Virus record (IMG/VR): IMGVR_UViG_3300029702_000330
DNA: 34,527 nucleotides
Source of the DNA: a virus
Taxonomy: Duplodnaviria > Heunggongvirae > Uroviricota > Caudoviricetes
Direction: 5' to 3' (one strand)
A program made the position numbers and the translations under genes. Positions 20-18,472 of the stretch are shown piece after piece (positions within the stretch are counted from its first letter, which is position 1; every line of letters begins with the position of its first letter). The notes under the pieces are model-generated. The model worked only from the letters and a program-made list of their open reading frames with translations, did not search any database and was not told where the DNA came from.

Positions 20-1315
20 TTAATTTTTCATTGCTTCGTTATGGGGCATGGTTGGGGCAAACTCGCTTAACTGTGTATTTAACAAAGCTACCTGTGCATT
101 ATTGTTTTCAGACATCCATTTTCCGTATACCTGAAATACCATTTGCGCATCTGCATGGCCCATCTGGTTTGCTATAAATGCCGGGTTAGCACCAGCTGTC
201 AGCGACCAGCAGGCATAAGTATGTCTCGACTGATATGATTTTCGATGGCGGAGTCCGGCACGTTTTATCGCTGCGTCCCACATCTGCCTTATTGAGTCAA
301 CGGTAAAATGGTCACCATAATTTTTTACTCTCGCTGACACTTCAGGTTGAAAAACAAAGGTGCATTTTTGTTTTTCTGTTCTGCCATACTCTCTGAGGTG
401 AACATCAATGATATGCTCTTTGCTCAGTCTCGTTAATGTCATCTGACTCCGGAGAGCGTCGATTGCTGGCTTAATAAGATGAATGACCCGATTGGTTCCC
501 GCCTGTGTTTTTGGTACCGTGAAACGGTCTTTTGCTAAATTTCTCCTGATCATCATTGTTCCATTTTTCAGATCTATGTCCTCCCATCCAAGTGCACACA
601 GCTCACCAGGGCGAACGCCAGTATAAACAGAAACACACCATAAATTTTTTGCTTGCTGATTTCTGCATGCATCGATAAGACGGATAAATTCCTCCCGCGA
701 AAGAGGATCCGGAATGGTTCTTGATTCCTTTAATGGCGAGATCCCCTTAAACGGATTATCTGCCAGGTAACCGTTATCAACACCAAACTGGAACACGGCG
801 TTAAGATTTGTCATGTAATTATTTACAGTTACAGCCGATCTCCCTGGTTGTGTAACAATATAGTTACTTTTGGGGATCTGGTATCCAGTCAGTAGCTCTT
901 TACGAACCTCCAGTAATTTTTCTTTATTAATCGATGAGGCAAGATTTTTTTCACCGATTATGCTCAGGATATTTTTGATGACGGCACGGTATGTGTTGAG
1001 TGATGTTTTGGCGACTTCAGTTTCTTTCAGTGCCAGAAATTTTTCAGCCAGTTCTTTTATGGTTAAATCTTGTCGGGCCTCACCAAATTTTTCCAGATTG
1101 CGTGAGGAGGGAAACTGTTTTGCATAGTCGAAAACACCAGTTTTTATTGCGTAACAAACAGAGGAGCGTAGTTCACCTGCAACGCGCCTGTTTTTTGCTG
1201 TGTCAGGAACCCCCAGATTTTCCCTGACTCTTACGCCTTTATAAACAAACCAGATACGTAATTTCCCTCCATGGTTTTCCACGCCTGTCGGATATTTCAT
1301 TTCAACTTCTCTCAT
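20..1315 (-). CDS. Phage tyrosine integrase (site-specific recombinase); true start may be the internal Met at 1300
   Basis: 431-aa ORF at the window edge; N-terminal 'YPTGVE...GKLRIWF' arm-binding style and C-terminal catalytic region (R...H..R...Y pattern) typical of lambdoid/Rac-type integrases; followed on the same strand by an excisionase-like ORF. Confidence 0.85.
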   Translation of the reverse strand: MREVEMKYPTGVENHGGKLRIWFVYKGVRVRENLGVPDTAKNRRVAGELRSSVCYAIKTGVFDYAKQFPSSRNLEKFGEARQDLTIKELAEKFLALKETEVAKTSLNTYRAVIKNILSIIGEKNLASSINKEKLLEVRKELLTGYQIPKSNYIVTQPGRSAVTVNNYMTNLNAVFQFGVDNGYLADNPFKGISPLKESRTIPDPLSREEFIRLIDACRNQQAKNLWCVSVYTGVRPGELCALGWEDIDLKNGTMMIRRNLAKDRFTVPKTQAGTNRVIHLIKPAIDALRSQMTLTRLSKEHIIDVHLREYGRTEKQKCTFVFQPEVSARVKNYGDHFTVDSIRQMWDAAIKRAGLRHRKSYQSRHTYACWSLTAGANPAFIANQMGHADAQMVFQVYGKWMSENNNAQVALLNTQLSEFAPTMPHNEAMKN

Positions 1316-1334: not shown

Positions 1335-1586
1335 TCAAGTAAGATGACGTCTTGGTCTCGCTGATGCCTGGCGCTCAATCCAGCGATCAATTTCTTCCAG
1401 GTTGTAAAAGCATGGACTGTTATCCCATGGCATACCGTCATGAGCGACATGCTTATATTCCCTTCCTTCCATAAACGATTTTTCCCGGGCCTTTTTTAAC
1501 GTACCTTTTTTTATTCCTTTCAGCGCAATTAACTGCTCTTCGGATACCCATTTGCCGGGAGAGACAATCATGATTACTTCGCTCAT
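1335..1586 (-). CDS. Excisionase-like small DNA-binding protein (Xis/AlpA-like)
   Basis: 83-aa basic ORF immediately upstream of int on the same strand, the classic int-xis arrangement. Confidence 0.6.
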   Translation of the reverse strand: MSEVIMIVSPGKWVSEEQLIALKGIKKGTLKKAREKSFMEGREYKHVAHDGMPWDNSPCFYNLEEIDRWIERQASARPRRHLT

Positions 1587-1658: not shown

Positions 1659-4130
1659 TTAAGAATCAGCCTGACTCGGGATCAGTTTTTGCCAGATAAC
1701 TGAAACGTATTTTGCCTGGTAACGGGCGTCATCAAGTGCATTATGGCGCTCACCTTCGAATGGAATAGCCGTTCTGGCATCGAAGTCTATGGCTTTCCCC
1801 AGCTCAACGATTGTGCGTACATCGCGATCGTTGTAGTAACGCCACGGGCAGGGGAGCCCCTGCCGTTCGTATGAACGGCGCAAAATCGTGTTGTCGAAGT
1901 TGGCTCCATTTCCCCAAACCTGAACAAAAAATTCACCGGAGTTTTCGTCGATAAATTCCCGCAATTGTAACAGTGCATCATCTAACGGGATTTCATCGGT
2001 CATAATGGCAGATTGCGCTTCGCGTGATTGCTTAAGCCACCATTTAATGGTGTCCCGATCAATGACTCCGCCAGCAGTTTCCAGATCGATAGTCTTACTA
2101 AATTCCGGTCCCATATCTCCGGTTTGCGGATCGAAAAATATTGCACCTATTGAGATGATCGGCGCATCAGGATTTTTTCCCATGGTTTCAAGGTCGATCA
2201 TTAGATGGTCACACGTCCTGCTGGTGGATGTGATTTCGTGATGACCGTTCACCTTAATTGGGTGATCTGCCGTCTCGCCAGTTTCATTATCGCTATTGTG
2301 ATGCTGATTGCCGCCAGTGTTCTCCTTGTGTGGATGTTCAGCGCCTTCCATTTCCTCCGGATCATCTTCCTGAACTTCAACCTGATACTCTTCATCGAAT
2401 GTTTCTTGGTATGTTGCGTCGCCCATCACCGCGCCACAATCAGGGCAGTTGCCGCCGCCGGTCTGACCGCAGGCGGTGCAGGCTTTTTCCACTTCCTGGT
2501 GCGCCACTGGTTCAGGCTGTTTCGTTTCTGGCTCGTTTTGTAACGCATTTGGACTGTTTTGTTCCGCTTTTTGGTAGTTCCGTTCCGATTCATGCTGGTT
2601 CTGGTTCACAGAATCGCGGGTCTGGATCCCCTTAACCCATTTCGGATCATTCGGGTCACTAATCCCTTCAACAAATTCACCACGTGATGCAGCAAGCAAC
2701 TTATCGGCGTCAGGCTGGCTGATATTGGCTGCCTGCATAATTTTGTTTACTTCGTCAGCGGTAACTTTTATCGGCTCTGGTTGTTCTGAATCTTCAGCGG
2801 TATCTACATTTTGCGGTAAGCCCGTGTATGTGCCATTTTTTCGGGCAAAATATTCTTCTTTTGTGATTTCAGTGGCGCCAGCAGCCAGTGCCTTATCCAG
2901 ACCAGAAAGTTTGTTTGCGCGACCGTATTTTTCTCCGTCCTTATCTGCGAAGAGGAAATAGAACGGCCCCTCACGCTCTACAGATGGTTCAGCTTCCGGC
3001 GCGGTTTCATTTTTTGGGATATCAGATACCTCAGTTTCCACTGCATCAGTTTGTGTTTCTGATGACTGGAGAACATCAACAGTGCCCAGGTCTGTTTCTT
3101 CATTCTCAAACACGCCCTTTGTCGTCAGGTATTCGCAGATATATTTGTTCAGTGCTACGGGATCTTTGTGAATGTCGATCGGACGCTCACGGACAAGGCC
3201 AAAAATAGTTTGGCGGTCGTAGCGAAGGGCATCAGGCTGTTTGCGCATTGATGCCGAGATACGCTTCCAGTCTTCGCGGTCGTTGTCGATAACTTCTTTT
3301 TTTGCCCAGCGATGGATGCTGCCGTCAATGTTTCTGGCATCCACATCACCAGGCCAGAGAGCGTAGGCCAGTTCGTCATCCAGTGTTTTCCATGTCTGCT
3401 TGTATTCGCGATGAATGGCAGCAATGACCGGGCTGATTTTTCCTGTTGAATTTTCAGTGTACTGTTGATTGGCTCTGGCGCGGGCGAGATCAACAACAGA
3501 CGTGTATTTTCCGGTTTCCTTGCGTTCACCTTCGCGACGTTTTTTCCAGATGCGCATCTCTGCCTGAATTTCGGGCCATTTAGCACCAGGAATACATTTA
3601 TGCTTAACCCACCCAATGGCGTGCAACTTAAGCTCCGGATACATGGCGTTAACTTCTGGCATTTTCATCAACGCTTCAACGATATGTCCGTCGAATGTTG
3701 CCATGTCTTCCTGCAACAATTCCTGTGCGCTAATAACCATATCAACGGTGATGTTTTCACATGTGTCGAACTTAACCATGACAGCGTTCTGTACTTCAGG
3801 GGCCAGCTTGTCAAAAGTGACGTTCATCGGATCGGATTCAGTCTCAACCGGGACAAAAGAAGCAGACTCCTCATCCCAGCGGTTTTCCTGCATATATTCA
3901 GCATCCCATGAATCGAGGGCAGGGCGGGGTATGCCAGGTTTATCCTCGCAGACGATAAATTTATAAGCGCAGTCCTGAGCAGCCGGATAATGTTCCAGGA
4001 ATTGCCAGTGAAATTTTGCTCGAGCACGGCGTTCGTCGCCAGCTTCAATGGCTGTGGCTACAGCCACAGCGCCTTCTTCCCTTGTTGCCAGTTCGTCAGG
4101 AATAGCGGCGCAAATAAAGACTTTACTCAT
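1659..4130 (-). CDS. Large phage exonuclease with C-terminal DnaQ-like (DEDDh) 3'-5' exonuclease domain; commonly annotated exodeoxyribonuclease VIII-like in prophages
   Basis: 823-aa ORF; C-terminus shows Exo I 'MIDLETMG', Exo II 'VWGNGANFDNTIL' and Exo III 'HNALDDARY' motifs; central acidic low-complexity linker and a CxxC...CxxC zinc-ribbon ('CTACGQ...CPDCG'). Confidence 0.7.
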   Translation of the reverse strand: MSKVFICAAIPDELATREEGAVAVATAIEAGDERRARAKFHWQFLEHYPAAQDCAYKFIVCEDKPGIPRPALDSWDAEYMQENRWDEESASFVPVETESDPMNVTFDKLAPEVQNAVMVKFDTCENITVDMVISAQELLQEDMATFDGHIVEALMKMPEVNAMYPELKLHAIGWVKHKCIPGAKWPEIQAEMRIWKKRREGERKETGKYTSVVDLARARANQQYTENSTGKISPVIAAIHREYKQTWKTLDDELAYALWPGDVDARNIDGSIHRWAKKEVIDNDREDWKRISASMRKQPDALRYDRQTIFGLVRERPIDIHKDPVALNKYICEYLTTKGVFENEETDLGTVDVLQSSETQTDAVETEVSDIPKNETAPEAEPSVEREGPFYFLFADKDGEKYGRANKLSGLDKALAAGATEITKEEYFARKNGTYTGLPQNVDTAEDSEQPEPIKVTADEVNKIMQAANISQPDADKLLAASRGEFVEGISDPNDPKWVKGIQTRDSVNQNQHESERNYQKAEQNSPNALQNEPETKQPEPVAHQEVEKACTACGQTGGGNCPDCGAVMGDATYQETFDEEYQVEVQEDDPEEMEGAEHPHKENTGGNQHHNSDNETGETADHPIKVNGHHEITSTSRTCDHLMIDLETMGKNPDAPIISIGAIFFDPQTGDMGPEFSKTIDLETAGGVIDRDTIKWWLKQSREAQSAIMTDEIPLDDALLQLREFIDENSGEFFVQVWGNGANFDNTILRRSYERQGLPCPWRYYNDRDVRTIVELGKAIDFDARTAIPFEGERHNALDDARYQAKYVSVIWQKLIPSQADS

Positions 4131-4223: not shown

Positions 4224-4415
4224 TTAAAGACCTGCCGGGATTTCGATATTATCCTGGTGAATAACTTTATCGACCGGGTAACAGTTACCGGGAATTTTCT
4301 GTTCGGTTGCTGCAGTCATACACTCCTGCATTGTCCTGTGAACACTGACTGCAATATCAACTGGCACTCCGGAAACAAGAAAAACTGTCAGAACAAGTGC
4401 AAATGCTGAATTCAT
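4224..4415 (-). CDS. Hypothetical small protein with N-terminal signal-peptide-like hydrophobic segment (63 aa)
   Basis: 'MNSAFALVLTVFLVSG...' hydrophobic N-terminus; AAGGA-like RBS; ATGA overlap with the upstream small ORF. Confidence 0.3.
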   Translation of the reverse strand: MNSAFALVLTVFLVSGVPVDIAVSVHRTMQECMTAATEQKIPGNCYPVDKVIHQDNIEIPAGL

Positions 4416-4600
4416 TGTGCACATCCTTTTGGCATCAGACGTAAACGAGCCAGCATTGAAACAATGCATATTTTATTTAATAGCTCCCGTTCTTGTTTTC
4501 TCTTGTTAATGGCATCTTCAGTAAATACAGGGTTACTGATAGTGACACCAATTTCAAAACAACCTTCAGACGTATTAACGTTTGGTAATAACGTTTTCAT
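4412..4600 (-). CDS. Hypothetical small early-left protein (62 aa)
   Basis: Internal Met of a 97-aa ORF preceded by GAGGA 7 nt upstream; stop overlaps the next start (ATGA), suggesting translational coupling. Confidence 0.3.
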   Translation of the reverse strand: MKTLLPNVNTSEGCFEIGVTISNPVFTEDAINKRKQERELLNKICIVSMLARLRLMPKGCAQ

Positions 4601-5086
4601 TATCGCGTCCTCAACAATGAATTTTGTGATGCAGTGCCTGGTGCCTCCAGGTGACGTTAACCAGTTAACAATTAACGTCGGATACAGAGAATCCACCCAT
4701 AACACTGTTTTTGGTTTTAACTGTTCCGCGTGCGCTTAGCCGCATTCACCGCATCACAAAATTCACTTTAAAAACGGCGGCAGAGCAGTCACGGAGTAAA
4801 ACTGATACCGCCAAACGTCACCAGAAAATTGATAACAGAGGGCGTTGCAGCGGGGTTGTCACTTAAGCGTATGGTCAACCTGACAACTCGGTGTCCTCAA
4901 CGGGGAAGGAATAACCCCGCCATACTTACCGCCGCGCCATTTTGCGGGTTGCCACAACCGGAAGCGCACGGTCGAATTAAATTTAACGACACCGTACAGT
5001 GAGACGAACTTCGCCGTGCGCTTTCGTGTTGTGTGCCTGCTTTTAACCACGTCAGGCGAGGTGGTATCCTTAAAATCACCACAGTT

Positions 5087-5662
5087 TTAAGGATTCATTA
5101 AGCAATGTCGCAACCACCAATAAATCCGCTTAAGAACATGAAAATTGATTACTGGTATAAAGCGCTTACAGTTGTTGGCGCTGCGTTGTTTGTCTTTAAT
5201 GGAACGTCTTTTTTTGACAGATATCCCGTTGTTCCATTGGGTTTTTTGTCCTCCGGCATCTTTTTTATTGGTTTGGGGGAGTGGATTAATCACCCTCTCA
5301 AAGTGAGATTTATTGATCCTGGAGTTTGGACTCGTGGATATAATCGTTCTTCGTGCGCACTCAGTATCATCTTCGACATACTTGGTTGTTTCCTGATTGT
5401 TACAGGAGTCGTCAAGTTCTTCTGATGTAAAACCGCAAATGGGGCACGTAACGGGAATTTTGAAAAGCGTTTCTCCGGGTTCCAGAACAAAATTTTCTGC
5501 GGTCTGATTTTGCTTCTCATATTTGTGCTCCGCGTCATTGTGAGAGCACATTCTTATTCTGAGTGCCTGTTTAAACTCACTGAAGCTGAGAGCTTCTTCG
5601 CCTTCGGCAAGGCCTTCGAAGTATTCTTCGTAAGCCTTTTCCATGATTGTGTCGAAATCCAT
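5087..5662 (-). CDS. Hypothetical acidic protein with CxxC motif (191 aa from internal Met); C-terminal part overlaps an antisense membrane ORF
   Basis: Start ATG at 5662 lies 1 nt after the TGA of the upstream gene with GGTGA RBS; N-terminal 80 aa acidic with 'CPICGF'; C-terminal 110 aa is K/R/N-rich and may be antisense shadow. Confidence 0.4.
   Translation of the reverse strand: MDFDTIMEKAYEEYFEGLAEGEEALSFSEFKQALRIRMCSHNDAEHKYEKQNQTAENFVLEPGETLFKIPVTCPICGFTSEELDDSCNNQETTKYVEDDTECARRTIISTSPNSRINKSHFERVINPLPQTNKKDAGGQKTQWNNGISVKKRRSIKDKQRSANNCKRFIPVINFHVLKRIYWWLRHCLMNP
5105..5425 (+). CDS. Putative small integral membrane protein (about 3 TM segments), antisense to the 3' half of the 5087-5662 ORF
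   Basis: Three hydrophobic stretches ('ALTVVGAALFVF', 'VVPLGFLSSGIFFIGLG', 'ALSIIFDILGCFLIVTGVV'); RBS weak, so uncertain. Confidence 0.3.
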   Translation: MSQPPINPLKNMKIDYWYKALTVVGAALFVFNGTSFFDRYPVVPLGFLSSGIFFIGLGEWINHPLKVRFIDPGVWTRGYNRSSCALSIIFDILGCFLIVTGVVKFF

Positions 5663-5663
5663 A

Positions 5664-5819
5664 TCACTCACCTGAGTTTCTTTCCAGCCAGCGACGGGCA
5701 CCATTTTCGGTTTTAAACGTTTTGCTTTTGGTATACGTCATCGCGGTGAACGTGCCGTCCTGGTTGGGGAACACGCCACATACCAGAGATTCGCTGTTGC
5801 CAAGATCGATAGTATCCAT
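5664..5819 (-). CDS. Hypothetical small protein (51 aa), first gene of the leftward early operon
   Basis: Internal Met with GAGG 5 nt upstream; sits just downstream of an operator-like palindrome and is coupled to the next gene. Confidence 0.4.
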   Translation of the reverse strand: MDTIDLGNSESLVCGVFPNQDGTFTAMTYTKSKTFKTENGARRWLERNSGE

Positions 5820-5987: not shown

Positions 5988-6395
5988 TTATTTTATTGAT
6001 TTATTTTTACGCGCTTTAAGCATTTCTTCGAAGAGTTTGTTGAAGTTTTCTACTCTTGCGCGCATTTCAGACAGCAAGGCTTCCTGCTCGGAAGATGGAA
6101 GAGCATCGAATAATTCGATCAATTCTTTGTGGTTGGGAGTTAGCTCTGTTTCCACATGAAGTTCTTGTGCCGGCACTGGTGCCTTGTCTTCGTCACCAAA
6201 CATTAGCCATGTAGGTGAGCACTTCAGAGCATCCGCTAAAGCAAACAATCGTTTTCCGACTGGCTGGGTTTCGTCTCTTTCCCATTGTGAAATTGTGACG
6301 TGAGCAACCCCAGCGAGGCGCGCAGCTTCTCGTTGTGTTAAGCGTAATTCTTTTCGTCGCGCCAGAACTCGCTGGCCTAGGGTTCTTGTATCCAT
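5988..6395 (-). CDS. Prophage repressor, XRE-family HTH (CI/DicA-like)
   Basis: 135-aa ORF with N-terminal HTH 'LRLTQREAARLAGVAHVTISQWERDE'; divergent from a Cro-like gene; resembles DicA of Qin from memory. Confidence 0.85.
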   Translation of the reverse strand: MDTRTLGQRVLARRKELRLTQREAARLAGVAHVTISQWERDETQPVGKRLFALADALKCSPTWLMFGDEDKAPVPAQELHVETELTPNHKELIELFDALPSSEQEALLSEMRARVENFNKLFEEMLKARKNKSIK

Positions 6396-17699: not shown

Positions 17700-18060
17700 G
17701 GTAATATTAAATCGGAACATTTACATCGCGGAATGTAAAATTTAAATAAAAAGGACTCTTCCATGAGCCAAAATTCCTGAAATCTTAAGGGTAAGATAAA
17801 AGGTCTTAATCAGAATGACACTTTTATTAATAAATAAAGCTATTCTTTCATTGCTGTGTTTTTCTTTACAAAAGTAATCCTTGCTATGGGTGGTTAATCA
17901 TGCGTTAATGGTGTTCTGGTTTGTTACAAATTTATCTGAAGCAGTCATTGTTATAATTTTATTATTTGTATCTCTTGAGATTTCCTTGTTGGTTTTTCTC
18001 TCTGATATTTTTTTTCGGACCATTCTGCCCAAGGGCTAATTTCTTCAAAAGGTAATAATT

Positions 18061-18273
18061 ATGTCTAACAAAATGACTGGTTTAGTGAAATGGTTTAACC
18101 CTGAAAAAGGTTTTGGTTTCATCACGCCGAAAGATGGCAGCAAAGATGTGTTTGTCCATTTCTCAGCAATTCAGAGCAACGATTTCAAAACATTAACTGA
18201 GAATCAGGAAGTTGAATTTGGTATTGAGAACGGACCTAAAGGTCCTGCCGCTGTTCATGTAGTGGCGCTTTGA
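18061..18273 (+). CDS. Cold-shock protein family (CspI-like), 70 aa
   Basis: '[37 protein letters not shown]' canonical CspA-family sequence; long AT-rich 5' leader. Confidence 0.9.
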
Positions 18274-18472
18274 GGTAGACAATATTACAAACCATATTCA
18301 CTTTAGATGCCCGTGTTGTCATGGTTCCCAGTATAGAACATCATCTTTTGATGTTTCTGACATGAATCCTTTCGGGGCAAAATGTATCTTTTGTAAATCA
18401 ATGATGATTACATTTGATAATATTTCACAATACTTAAATGCCAGCCGTCTGTCGTTGGATTTAAAAAAGTGA
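18263..18472 (+). pseudogene. Zinc-ribbon paralogue of the 15754-15924 gene lacking a canonical start codon (possible pseudogene or non-canonical start)
   Basis: Frame encodes 'RCPCCHGSQYRTSSFDVSDMNPFGAKCIFCKSMM...', same CxCC...CxxC pattern as the other zinc-ribbon gene; no ATG/GTG/TTG upstream of the first Cys cluster; followed by a terminator hairpin at 18478-18500. Confidence 0.3.

Follow-up and report, generated by a model that had tools for sequence, protein, structure and literature searches.

The question raised by this locus is what a large exonuclease may do in a temperate phage that carries no annealase to accompany it. The gene concerned occupies positions 1659 to 4130 of a 34,527-nucleotide stretch of Caudoviricetes DNA (IMG/VR virus record IMGVR_UViG_3300029702_000330), the whole of which is referred to here as the window and which represents an intact Qin-type lambdoid prophage at the rspB locus, its right end lying outside the window. 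The comparisons set out below indicate that the 823-amino acid (aa) product is a chimera, in which the PD-(D/E)XK nuclease of a RecE-type scaffold is replaced by a 3′-5′ exonuclease that, judging by its family, has the opposite polarity.

A DexA-family exonuclease on a RecE-type scaffold

The C-terminal domain (aa 642-813) matches the Pfam family PF16473, Rv2179c-like 3′-5′ exoribonuclease, at 226.8 bits against a cutoff of 27 (E = 1.9e-67) and over profile positions 2-177 of 177, with RNase_T as a weak second Pfam match. A preliminary description of the locus, made without database searches, had proposed a DEDDh exonuclease at this end of the protein with all three DnaQ-family motifs, and the domain search agrees with it both in assigning a nuclease fold and in the motifs, which are Exo I D646-x-E648 (MIDLET), Exo II D746 (NFD) and Exo III H796-x4-D801 (HNALDD). 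Across 56 homologous domains the catalytic residues are invariant, being kept in 22-23 of the 23 fused homologues and in 32-33 of the 33 standalone ones. The closest solved structure by sequence is that of phage T4 DexA (8KEL/8KEN; E = 1.6e-6, 28% identity over the domain), and a sequence search of the PDB at E values up to 1 returned only T4 DexA and no RNase. Homologues of the domain are encoded in 1293 phage records. Taken together, these comparisons describe the C-terminus as a conserved and selected exonuclease of the DexA family whose active site looks catalytically intact. A scan of the protein with PADLOC gave a generic DEDDh match only (E = 2e-5), and on this ground the gene was rejected as a known PADLOC defence gene. 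Exonuclease activity in the 3′-5′ direction on DNA has been reported for the relatives DexA and EcD (PMC12153337), and for the window protein we infer DNA as the substrate, 3′-5′ polarity, targeting by the scaffold and the biological role discussed below.

Ahead of this domain the protein resembles RecE of the Rac prophage. By BLASTP, aa 262-627 align with RecE 278-592 (E = 8e-62), and the NCBIfam model for exodeoxyribonuclease VIII (NF007259) matches aa 246-623 only, over profile positions 271-600 of 877 and at 279.6 bits against a cutoff of 1269. The PD-(D/E)XK nuclease domain of RecE (about residues 600-866) gives no BLASTP alignment, the RecE nuclease seed has no match in the 823-aa protein, and no PD-(D/E)XK domain was found in it, in line with the earlier proposal that the catalytic domain is not of the lambda-Exo/RecE type. 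As the catalytic domain of RecE is without counterpart and a DEDDh domain stands in its place, the arrangement is that of a RecE-type scaffold bearing a nuclease of a different superfamily. The gene was rejected as a true RecE orthologue on the evidence of both the nuclease domain and the NF007259 cutoff.

Protein identity to RecE varies along the scaffold, amounting to 25% in the N2 core (aa 245-340), 69% in aa 470-545, 84% in the zinc ribbon (aa 546-570, corresponding to RecE 512-536) and 71% in aa 571-630. Codons 475-622 are 78% identical to recE at the nucleotide level, which marks them as a mosaic segment of 148 codons that includes the zinc ribbon and the acidic linker and has 69-84% protein identity. 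The zinc ribbon was correctly recognized in the preliminary description, but its spacing is C-x2-C-x7-C-x2-C and not CxxC-x12-CxxC; most other family members lack it in the alignment. The likeness extends to the setting, as both proteins are large and acidic, contain the helical N2 core and are encoded in the leftward early operon of a lambdoid prophage near xis-int. They differ in that the C-terminus of RecE itself is a PD-(D/E)XK nuclease of 5′-3′ polarity whereas the window protein ends in a DEDDh domain of the 3′-5′ type, in that the first 235 aa of the window protein form another, YdfE-type module, and in that no recT follows the window gene. The N-terminal region of RecE has been described in a 2023 review as 'of unknown function', being dispensable for basic recombination and enhancing linear-linear recombination (PMC11611040).

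The N-terminal two-thirds of the window protein had been characterized as acidic and low-complexity. They are indeed acidic, with an isoelectric point of 4.7 and a net charge of -51 over the N-terminal 640 aa, but the second attribute does not hold for aa 1-345, for which an AlphaFold2 (AF2) model built from 18 homologues has a mean predicted local distance difference test score (pLDDT) of 87 and comprises three folded parts. The model thus predicts that aa 1-345 are folded and not low-complexity, with only roughly aa 346-640 linker-like. Structure comparison with this model found no informative structural relative. The protein matches phrog_2082 over its full length, and two newer Pfam families, PF27430 and PF27432, have been assigned to close homologues. 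The product of ydfE (b1577) in the Qin prophage of Escherichia coli K-12, a pseudogene truncated by IS2, is 100% identical to aa 1-256, and the exonuclease gene can by this comparison be recognized as the intact version of ydfE.

Modularity of the scaffold

A search with the full-length protein returned only near-identical E. coli proteins, and diversity came from a search with aa 1-345 against 1.84 billion representative proteins (50% representatives), which gave 170 clusters at E ≤ 0.001. At the N-terminus of the scaffold, local profile mapping finds either a YdfE-type N1 module or RecE's own N-terminus, followed in most members, including RecE, by the N2 core, which is carried by RecE-nuclease, DEDDh and Rad52-like fusions. 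The C-termini comprise the DEDDh exonuclease (P0121, P0124, P0134, P0220, P0226, P0231, P0241, P0244, P0249, P0262 and P0263), the PD-(D/E)XK nuclease of RecE (P0135, P0171, P0225, P0229, P0247 and P0264) and two further domains that match no Pfam family at E ≤ 0.001. In scaffold proteins of the phrog_26058 type (P0126, P0215, P0239, P0251, P0253-P0255 and P0258), the C-terminus has no match to either type of nuclease, to the Rad52-like domain or to a Pfam family. A conserved island in the linker (aa 386-440) is found by phmmer in the Rad52-like and other fusions as well (P0124, P0126, P0130, P0131, P0139 and others). N-terminal modules appear to be interchangeable even at one locus, since at locus L010 a RecE-type N-terminus is joined to the same C-terminal half as in the window, within the same dicB-ydfD-exo-xis-int locus.

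The Rad52-like fusions are represented by phrog_2489 (P0131, Pectobacterium phage ZF40 gp07), which is labelled 'exonuclease' and has an invariant KKSLTD..K.LS.LGF motif in its C-terminal domain. Rad52_Rad22 is the recurrent weak Pfam match of this family (7 of 17 members, best E = 0.017), centred on the KKSLTD motif, and the likeness to Rad52 comes from fold comparison of an AF2 model of the domain (pLDDT 86.8); a profile search of the PDB with the domain found nothing. The fusions have in common with the window protein the YdfE-type N1 module, the N2 core and the island at aa 386-440, and in ZF40 the gene likewise stands between cI and int, with a Sipho_Gp157 gene after it. The same scaffold thus appears to carry a 5′-3′ nuclease, a 3′-5′ nuclease or a predicted Rad52-like annealase. 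Taken further, the RecE-type scaffold could be a general delivery module for phage DNA-end enzymes, and the window protein the sole phage component of an undescribed recombination or end-processing route that involves host RecBCD-Chi and RecA in lambdoid phages without a Rec module. We regard this extension as rather unlikely; if it is true, its study would reveal what the N-terminal 600 residues of RecE do.

Absence of an annealase and the Chi sites of the window

The lack of an annealase gene beside the exonuclease gene, noticed at the outset from the letters alone, is borne out by every scan made. PHROG and Pfam scans found no annealase family among the open reading frames (ORFs) of the early region, and phmmer seeds for RecT, Bet/Redβ, Erf, Sak4, Rad52-like proteins, lambda Exo, Gam and Abc2 had no match in window ORFs of at least 40 aa. 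By the same three methods, the early-left operon of the window contains no annealase, single-stranded DNA-binding protein (SSB) or anti-RecBCD gene. No annealase is annotated in the near-identical prophage of E. coli ATCC 25922 or in the complete phage PhiR42_1, and no recT, bet or erf homologue was found elsewhere in the window or in related complete phages. The seeds were single sequences, from which very divergent annealases could escape, but the shortness of the operon argues against an overlooked divergent annealase at loci with the fused gene. In a scan of one genome per species, which gave 63 Enterobacterales loci, none of the 25 fused homologues has an annealase beside it, and at 41 loci (23 fused, 18 standalone) the median distance from the exonuclease gene to a cI-like repressor upstream of it is 2.3 kb, leaving no room for an annealase gene or a recombination (Rec) module. 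The lack of an annealase is thus a property of the whole family and of a published phage class, and not a local oddity. A role as one half of a SynExo recombinase was rejected on account of the missing annealase partner and of the polarity, the catalytic domain belonging to a 3′-5′ family.

The window has seven Chi sites (GCTGGTGG; Table 1), a count that is partial as the right end of the prophage is outside, against 0.92 expected by shuffling, and none of 100 shuffles reaches seven. The density is about that of the E. coli chromosome, and one of the sites (2220..2227, + strand) lies inside the exonuclease gene. Six of the seven are on the + strand, the orientation of the late genes, with four at 11.0-17.1 kb; as in lambda, sites so oriented should be active towards RecBCD that has entered from the right cos end. 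In a recent study of 325 lambdoid phages, 72 are without a recombination module but have many Chi sites (PMC12315714, Genome Research 2025), and with no Rec module and seven mostly co-oriented Chi sites the window phage fits this class. The same study reports that some lambdoid Rec modules contain DnaQ-like 3′-5′ nucleases, that DnaQ-type genes found sporadically 'very near int' do not count as Rec-module genes, and that there are 'RecE-2' proteins without a nuclease domain.

Distribution and selection

The exonuclease gene is present at ≥80% coverage in 3537 of 5426 complete E. coli genomes (about 65%), at up to 10 places per genome, and also occurs in the isolated phages HannyBb, PhiR42_1, Tritos, mEp460 and Evi; the top 90% cluster holds 23,183 member sequences. 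The 63 loci divide into 25 with a fused gene (640-850 aa) and 38 with a standalone exonuclease (about 185 aa), and an integrase gene follows within 2 kb on the same strand at 43 of them, among which are 23 of the 25 fused loci. Outside Escherichia, the nearest relatives, at 56% identity, are standalone genes of Salmonella phages. The P22-like Salmonella phage NM-3 has the order erf-ssb-exo-abc2, and in F1055 the exonuclease gene stands just before int. A standalone exonuclease gene with an Erf-SSB pair occurs at a single one of the 63 loci (L037).

Other genes recur upstream of the standalone exonuclease, namely those for a DUF2303 protein (phrog_210) at 18 loci and for a deoxyribonucleoside 5′-monophosphate phosphatase (phrog_318) at 13 (examples of such neighbours are L028:6257-7087 and L069:8981-9646), and RdgC-like genes accompany it at 4. 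As none of the 25 fused loci has a phosphatase, DUF2303 or RdgC-like neighbour, the standalone and fused exonucleases may do different jobs. Five of the loci (L010, L028, L037, L052 and L054) are enterobacterial prophage sequence in assemblies labelled Veillonella parvula, Geobacteraceae, Actinomycetes, Streptomyces and Chryseobacterium, and int and xis of L010 are near-identical to those of the window; these assemblies probably reflect contamination or binning errors.

All parts of the exonuclease gene are under purifying selection. The ratio of nonsynonymous to synonymous substitution rates (dN/dS) of N1 (aa 1-205) is 0.08 against the Escherichia albertii copy; against L008 it is 0.08 for N1, 0.13 for N2 and 0.37 for the linker, and against L009 it is 0.30 overall. 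The linker has values of 0.31-0.37, and all segments fall within 0.08-0.37.

Processing of 3′ ends and competing explanations

The role that we favour, at a rough probability of 40%, is recombination-associated processing of DNA 3′ ends, that is, the trimming of 3′ tails or flaps. It is suggested by the recombination enzymes with which both halves of the protein are associated elsewhere: the scaffold is joined to the RecE nuclease or to a Rad52-like annealase, and the nuclease is encoded within erf-ssb-exo-abc2 modules. The protein would be made from the leftward early transcript upon prophage derepression or infection, and the scaffold and zinc ribbon would recruit the catalytic domain to a DNA end or to some partner of the host. 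There the DEDDh site would remove nucleotides from 3′-OH DNA ends by two-metal hydrolysis, with D646, E648, D746 and D801 holding Mg2+ and H796 serving as the base. The protein would work without a phage annealase and, given a phage with no Rec module and host-like Chi numbers, recombination probably runs through host RecBCD and RecA. The DnaQ-like nucleases of lambdoid Rec modules (epsilon34 type; NM-3) offer a partial parallel, with a 56% identical domain encoded in the early-left operon of a temperate enterobacterial phage. They are standalone proteins of about 182 aa, encoded between ssb and abc2 and near erf, whereas the window gene is fused, adjoins xis-int and has no Rec-module neighbours.

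Several points weigh against such a role. A 3′-5′ exonuclease destroys the very 3′ tails that annealases and RecA use, 3′-5′ nucleases usually inhibit recombination, and DnaQ-type genes adjoining int have been excluded from the Rec-module genes (PMC12315714). The place beside int is one that accessory genes occupy, and the Pfam family of the catalytic domain is named after an RNA exonuclease. The sole tested near relative, the standalone EcD, degrades modified phage DNA and acts against T4 (PMC12153337). The segment in common with recE could reflect phage mosaicism and not a common function, and with no informative structural relative for the N-terminal scaffold, its targeting role is conjecture.

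The findings on EcD lead to a different explanation, in which the window protein would serve exclusion or defence. It would selectively degrade incoming modified-cytosine DNA of T-even phages and protect the lysogen or the induced cell from competitors, and the RecE-like N-terminus would regulate or tether it. In a study that solved the structure of T4 DexA, EcD, a DexA homologue of E. coli, digested genomic DNA of T4 but left unmodified double-stranded DNA undigested and, when expressed from a plasmid, protected against T4, a strategy termed 'HREX' (PMC12153337, NAR 2025). The DexA homologues of that study are mostly from Escherichia, Citrobacter and Klebsiella and are treated as bacterial genes; most DexA-homologue loci of the 63-locus scan adjoin prophage integrases, and the genera with EcD-type genes are those where the gene does so here. 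EcD and the window protein have in common a DexA-like DEDDh exonuclease of the same Enterobacterales homologue group with a conserved active site, and the residue numbering of EcD, whose A78 occupies the DexA D90 position and aligns with D718 of the window protein, is consistent with a standalone protein of about 185 aa aligned with aa 641-823. T4 DexA itself belongs to the same Pfam family and shares all DEDDh catalytic residues, although it is a standalone protein of 227 aa from a virulent phage with extra loops, whereas the window domain forms the C-terminus of an 823-aa temperate-phage protein. An aromatic residue, Y766, is kept where DexA has W152, which serves recognition of hydroxymethylcytosine, and D784 is kept at the probable equivalent of DexA D169, a position beyond the confident DexA alignment. 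In addition, the neighbouring dicB is known to protect against phages. These points are offset by others. The dimer/tetramer switch of DexA acts via S87 and D90, which correspond to P715 and D718 in the window protein, and the latter thus keeps the Asp whose loss, to Ala in EcD, defines the 'dimer-only' class of EcD. The Tyr of the window differs from the Trp found in 27 of 33 standalone homologues, and in 12 of the 23 fused homologues the equivalent of D169 is Asn. EcD is standalone and the evidence for it comes from plasmid expression, whereas the window domain is fused to a scaffold that otherwise bears recombination enzymes, a fusion that an exclusion function leaves unexplained, and PADLOC sees only the generic DEDDh match. 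Moreover, at the end of a DicA-repressed operon and with no promoter-like site of its own, the gene should be silent in a lysogen. An HREX-type function is therefore possible but doubtful.

As T4 DexA, the closest solved relative, is established in the scavenging of host DNA, the window protein might instead degrade host or broken DNA or oligonucleotides to mononucleotides during lytic growth, for phage DNA synthesis or turnover. The phrog_318 phosphatase gene about 1.5 kb from standalone homologues at 13 loci would suit such a pathway, but this association is confined to the standalone genes, a scaffold of about 640 aa is needless for bulk degradation, and lambdoid phages are not, to our knowledge, known to degrade host DNA; scavenging is accordingly improbable. 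Action on RNA 3′ ends, in host or phage transcripts or in RNA signals, and not on DNA, is raised by the best Pfam family, whose name derives from the Mycobacterium tuberculosis exoribonuclease Rv2179c, by the name '3′-5′ exoribonuclease (domain-containing protein)' that NCBI gives to many copies, and by the regulatory RNA DicF in the same operon. This has a slim chance of being correct, given that the only match in the PDB is a DNase, that the tested homologue EcD acts on DNA, and that the proteins fused to members of the family or encoded beside them act in DNA transactions. The truncation by IS2 in K-12, together with frameshifted or split copies at L011, L048, L062 and L065, might finally point to a decaying prophage relic without current function, like the remnant ydfE, yet intact copies exist in the 3537 complete E. 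coli genomes and in isolated viable phages, the catalytic residues are invariant, and the dN/dS values are low in all segments. Pseudogene status was rejected on this conservation and selection, and a relic would be surprising in the extreme.

Prophage setting

The leftward early operon has the order DicA-like repressor, ydfA-like gene, 205-aa ORF, DicF, dicB, ydfD, exonuclease, xis and int (Table 1). Upstream of the exonuclease gene on the coding strand, a consensus scan found no sigma-70-like promoter and there is a weak terminator-like hairpin only, so that the gene appears to close the early-left dicB operon, under repressor control, as its final cistron. The 205-aa ORF matches no Pfam family, has a resemblance to the short phage family phrog_2061 that is confined to the first 48 aa, and includes a cluster of cysteines (CPICG..C); in the ATCC 25922 prophage, only a ydfB fragment is annotated at its place.

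Table 1. Coordinates of the exonuclease gene, its parts and neighbouring features in the window
Feature	Position	Strand	Basis
Whole gene, 823-aa RecE-scaffold::DEDDh exonuclease, intact form of K-12 ydfE (phrog_2082)	1659..4130	-	ORF, ATG start
Small alpha/beta subdomain of the YdfE-type N-terminal module N1, aa 1-97	3840..4130	-	
Helical subdomain of N1, aa 104-205	3516..3821	-	AF2 pLDDT 90-96
Basic disordered connector, aa 206-244	3399..3515	-	pLDDT 38-59, net positive charge
Helical N2 core, aa 245-340 (RecE about 278-351)	3111..3398	-	AF2 pLDDT 88-96
Acidic linker, mostly variable, with conserved islands, aa 346-640	2211..3095	-	Charge profile, alignment
Conserved island GPFYFLF..GEKYGRANKL..EITKEEYFARKNG, aa 386-440	2811..2975	-	phmmer matches to middle region
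Mosaic segment common to Rac recE, codons 475-622 (RecE 455-588)	2264..2706	-	blastn
Zinc ribbon C551-x2-C554-x7-C562-x2-C565	2436..2480	-	Sequence
Strongly acidic run, aa 571-600	2331..2420	-	Net charge -14 over aa 561-600
Predicted DexA/Rv2179c-family DEDDh 3′-5′ exonuclease domain, aa 642-813	1692..2207	-	Pfam PF16473
DicA-like cI repressor, start of leftward early operon	5988..6395	-	HTH_3; gene order as in K-12 Qin
205-aa ORF, early-left operon	5087-5704	-	phrog_35040
DicF small RNA	4775..4826	-	Rfam RF00039, 72.5 bits against gathering score 48
dicB, cell-division inhibitor	4412..4600	-	Pfam DicB, E = 9.6e-40
ydfD, DUF1482 lysis protein, directly upstream of exonuclease gene	4224..4415	-	Pfam DUF1482; PGAP annotation of ATCC 25922 copy
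Excisionase, directly downstream of exonuclease gene	1335..1586	-	Annotation of identical copies
Tyrosine integrase, prophage end, adjoins rspB	20..1315	-	ORF and annotation
Chi sites	2220, 11017, 12465, 12522, 17090, 24936	+	
Chi site	13055	-	

Elsewhere in the window, a 604-aa protein (9011-10825, + strand) contains a GmrSD_N/DUF262 domain (Pfam E = 2e-22) and is matched in PADLOC by NsnA (9.5e-28) and PD-T4-2_A. Its gene lies in a window-specific insert at about 8722-10960, after the replication genes; as the near-identical ATCC 25922 prophage has a DUF4209 gene in its place, this looks like a variable defence-gene slot. Rfam also identifies a sok antitoxin RNA at 11285-11459 (+) next to hokD, and two cspA-type thermoregulator leaders at 15014-15406 (+) and 17915-18300 (+) before prophage cold-shock genes.

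Implications

The gene is ubiquitous, and DnaQ-type nucleases near int are already in print. In the literature searched, nothing was found on the function of ydfE or of an Rv2179c-type gene, nor any description of the RecE-scaffold chimera, of the equivalence with ydfE or of the three-way modularity of the scaffold. It is among the most widespread of E. coli prophage genes, often with several copies per genome, yet carries generic labels only ('exonuclease', '3′-5′ exoribonuclease'). If its product serves end processing in phages that rely on RecBCD and Chi, this would fill in how DNA is handled by lambdoid phages without a Rec module; if it is an exclusion nuclease like EcD, an anti-T-even function would be very common. 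The chimeric organization bears on the old question of the role of the N-terminal two-thirds of RecE, which are dispensable but conserved. Annotation is concerned as well, as numerous phage proteins are wrongly labelled 'exonuclease VIII' or 'exonuclease', some having the opposite polarity and others being annealases.

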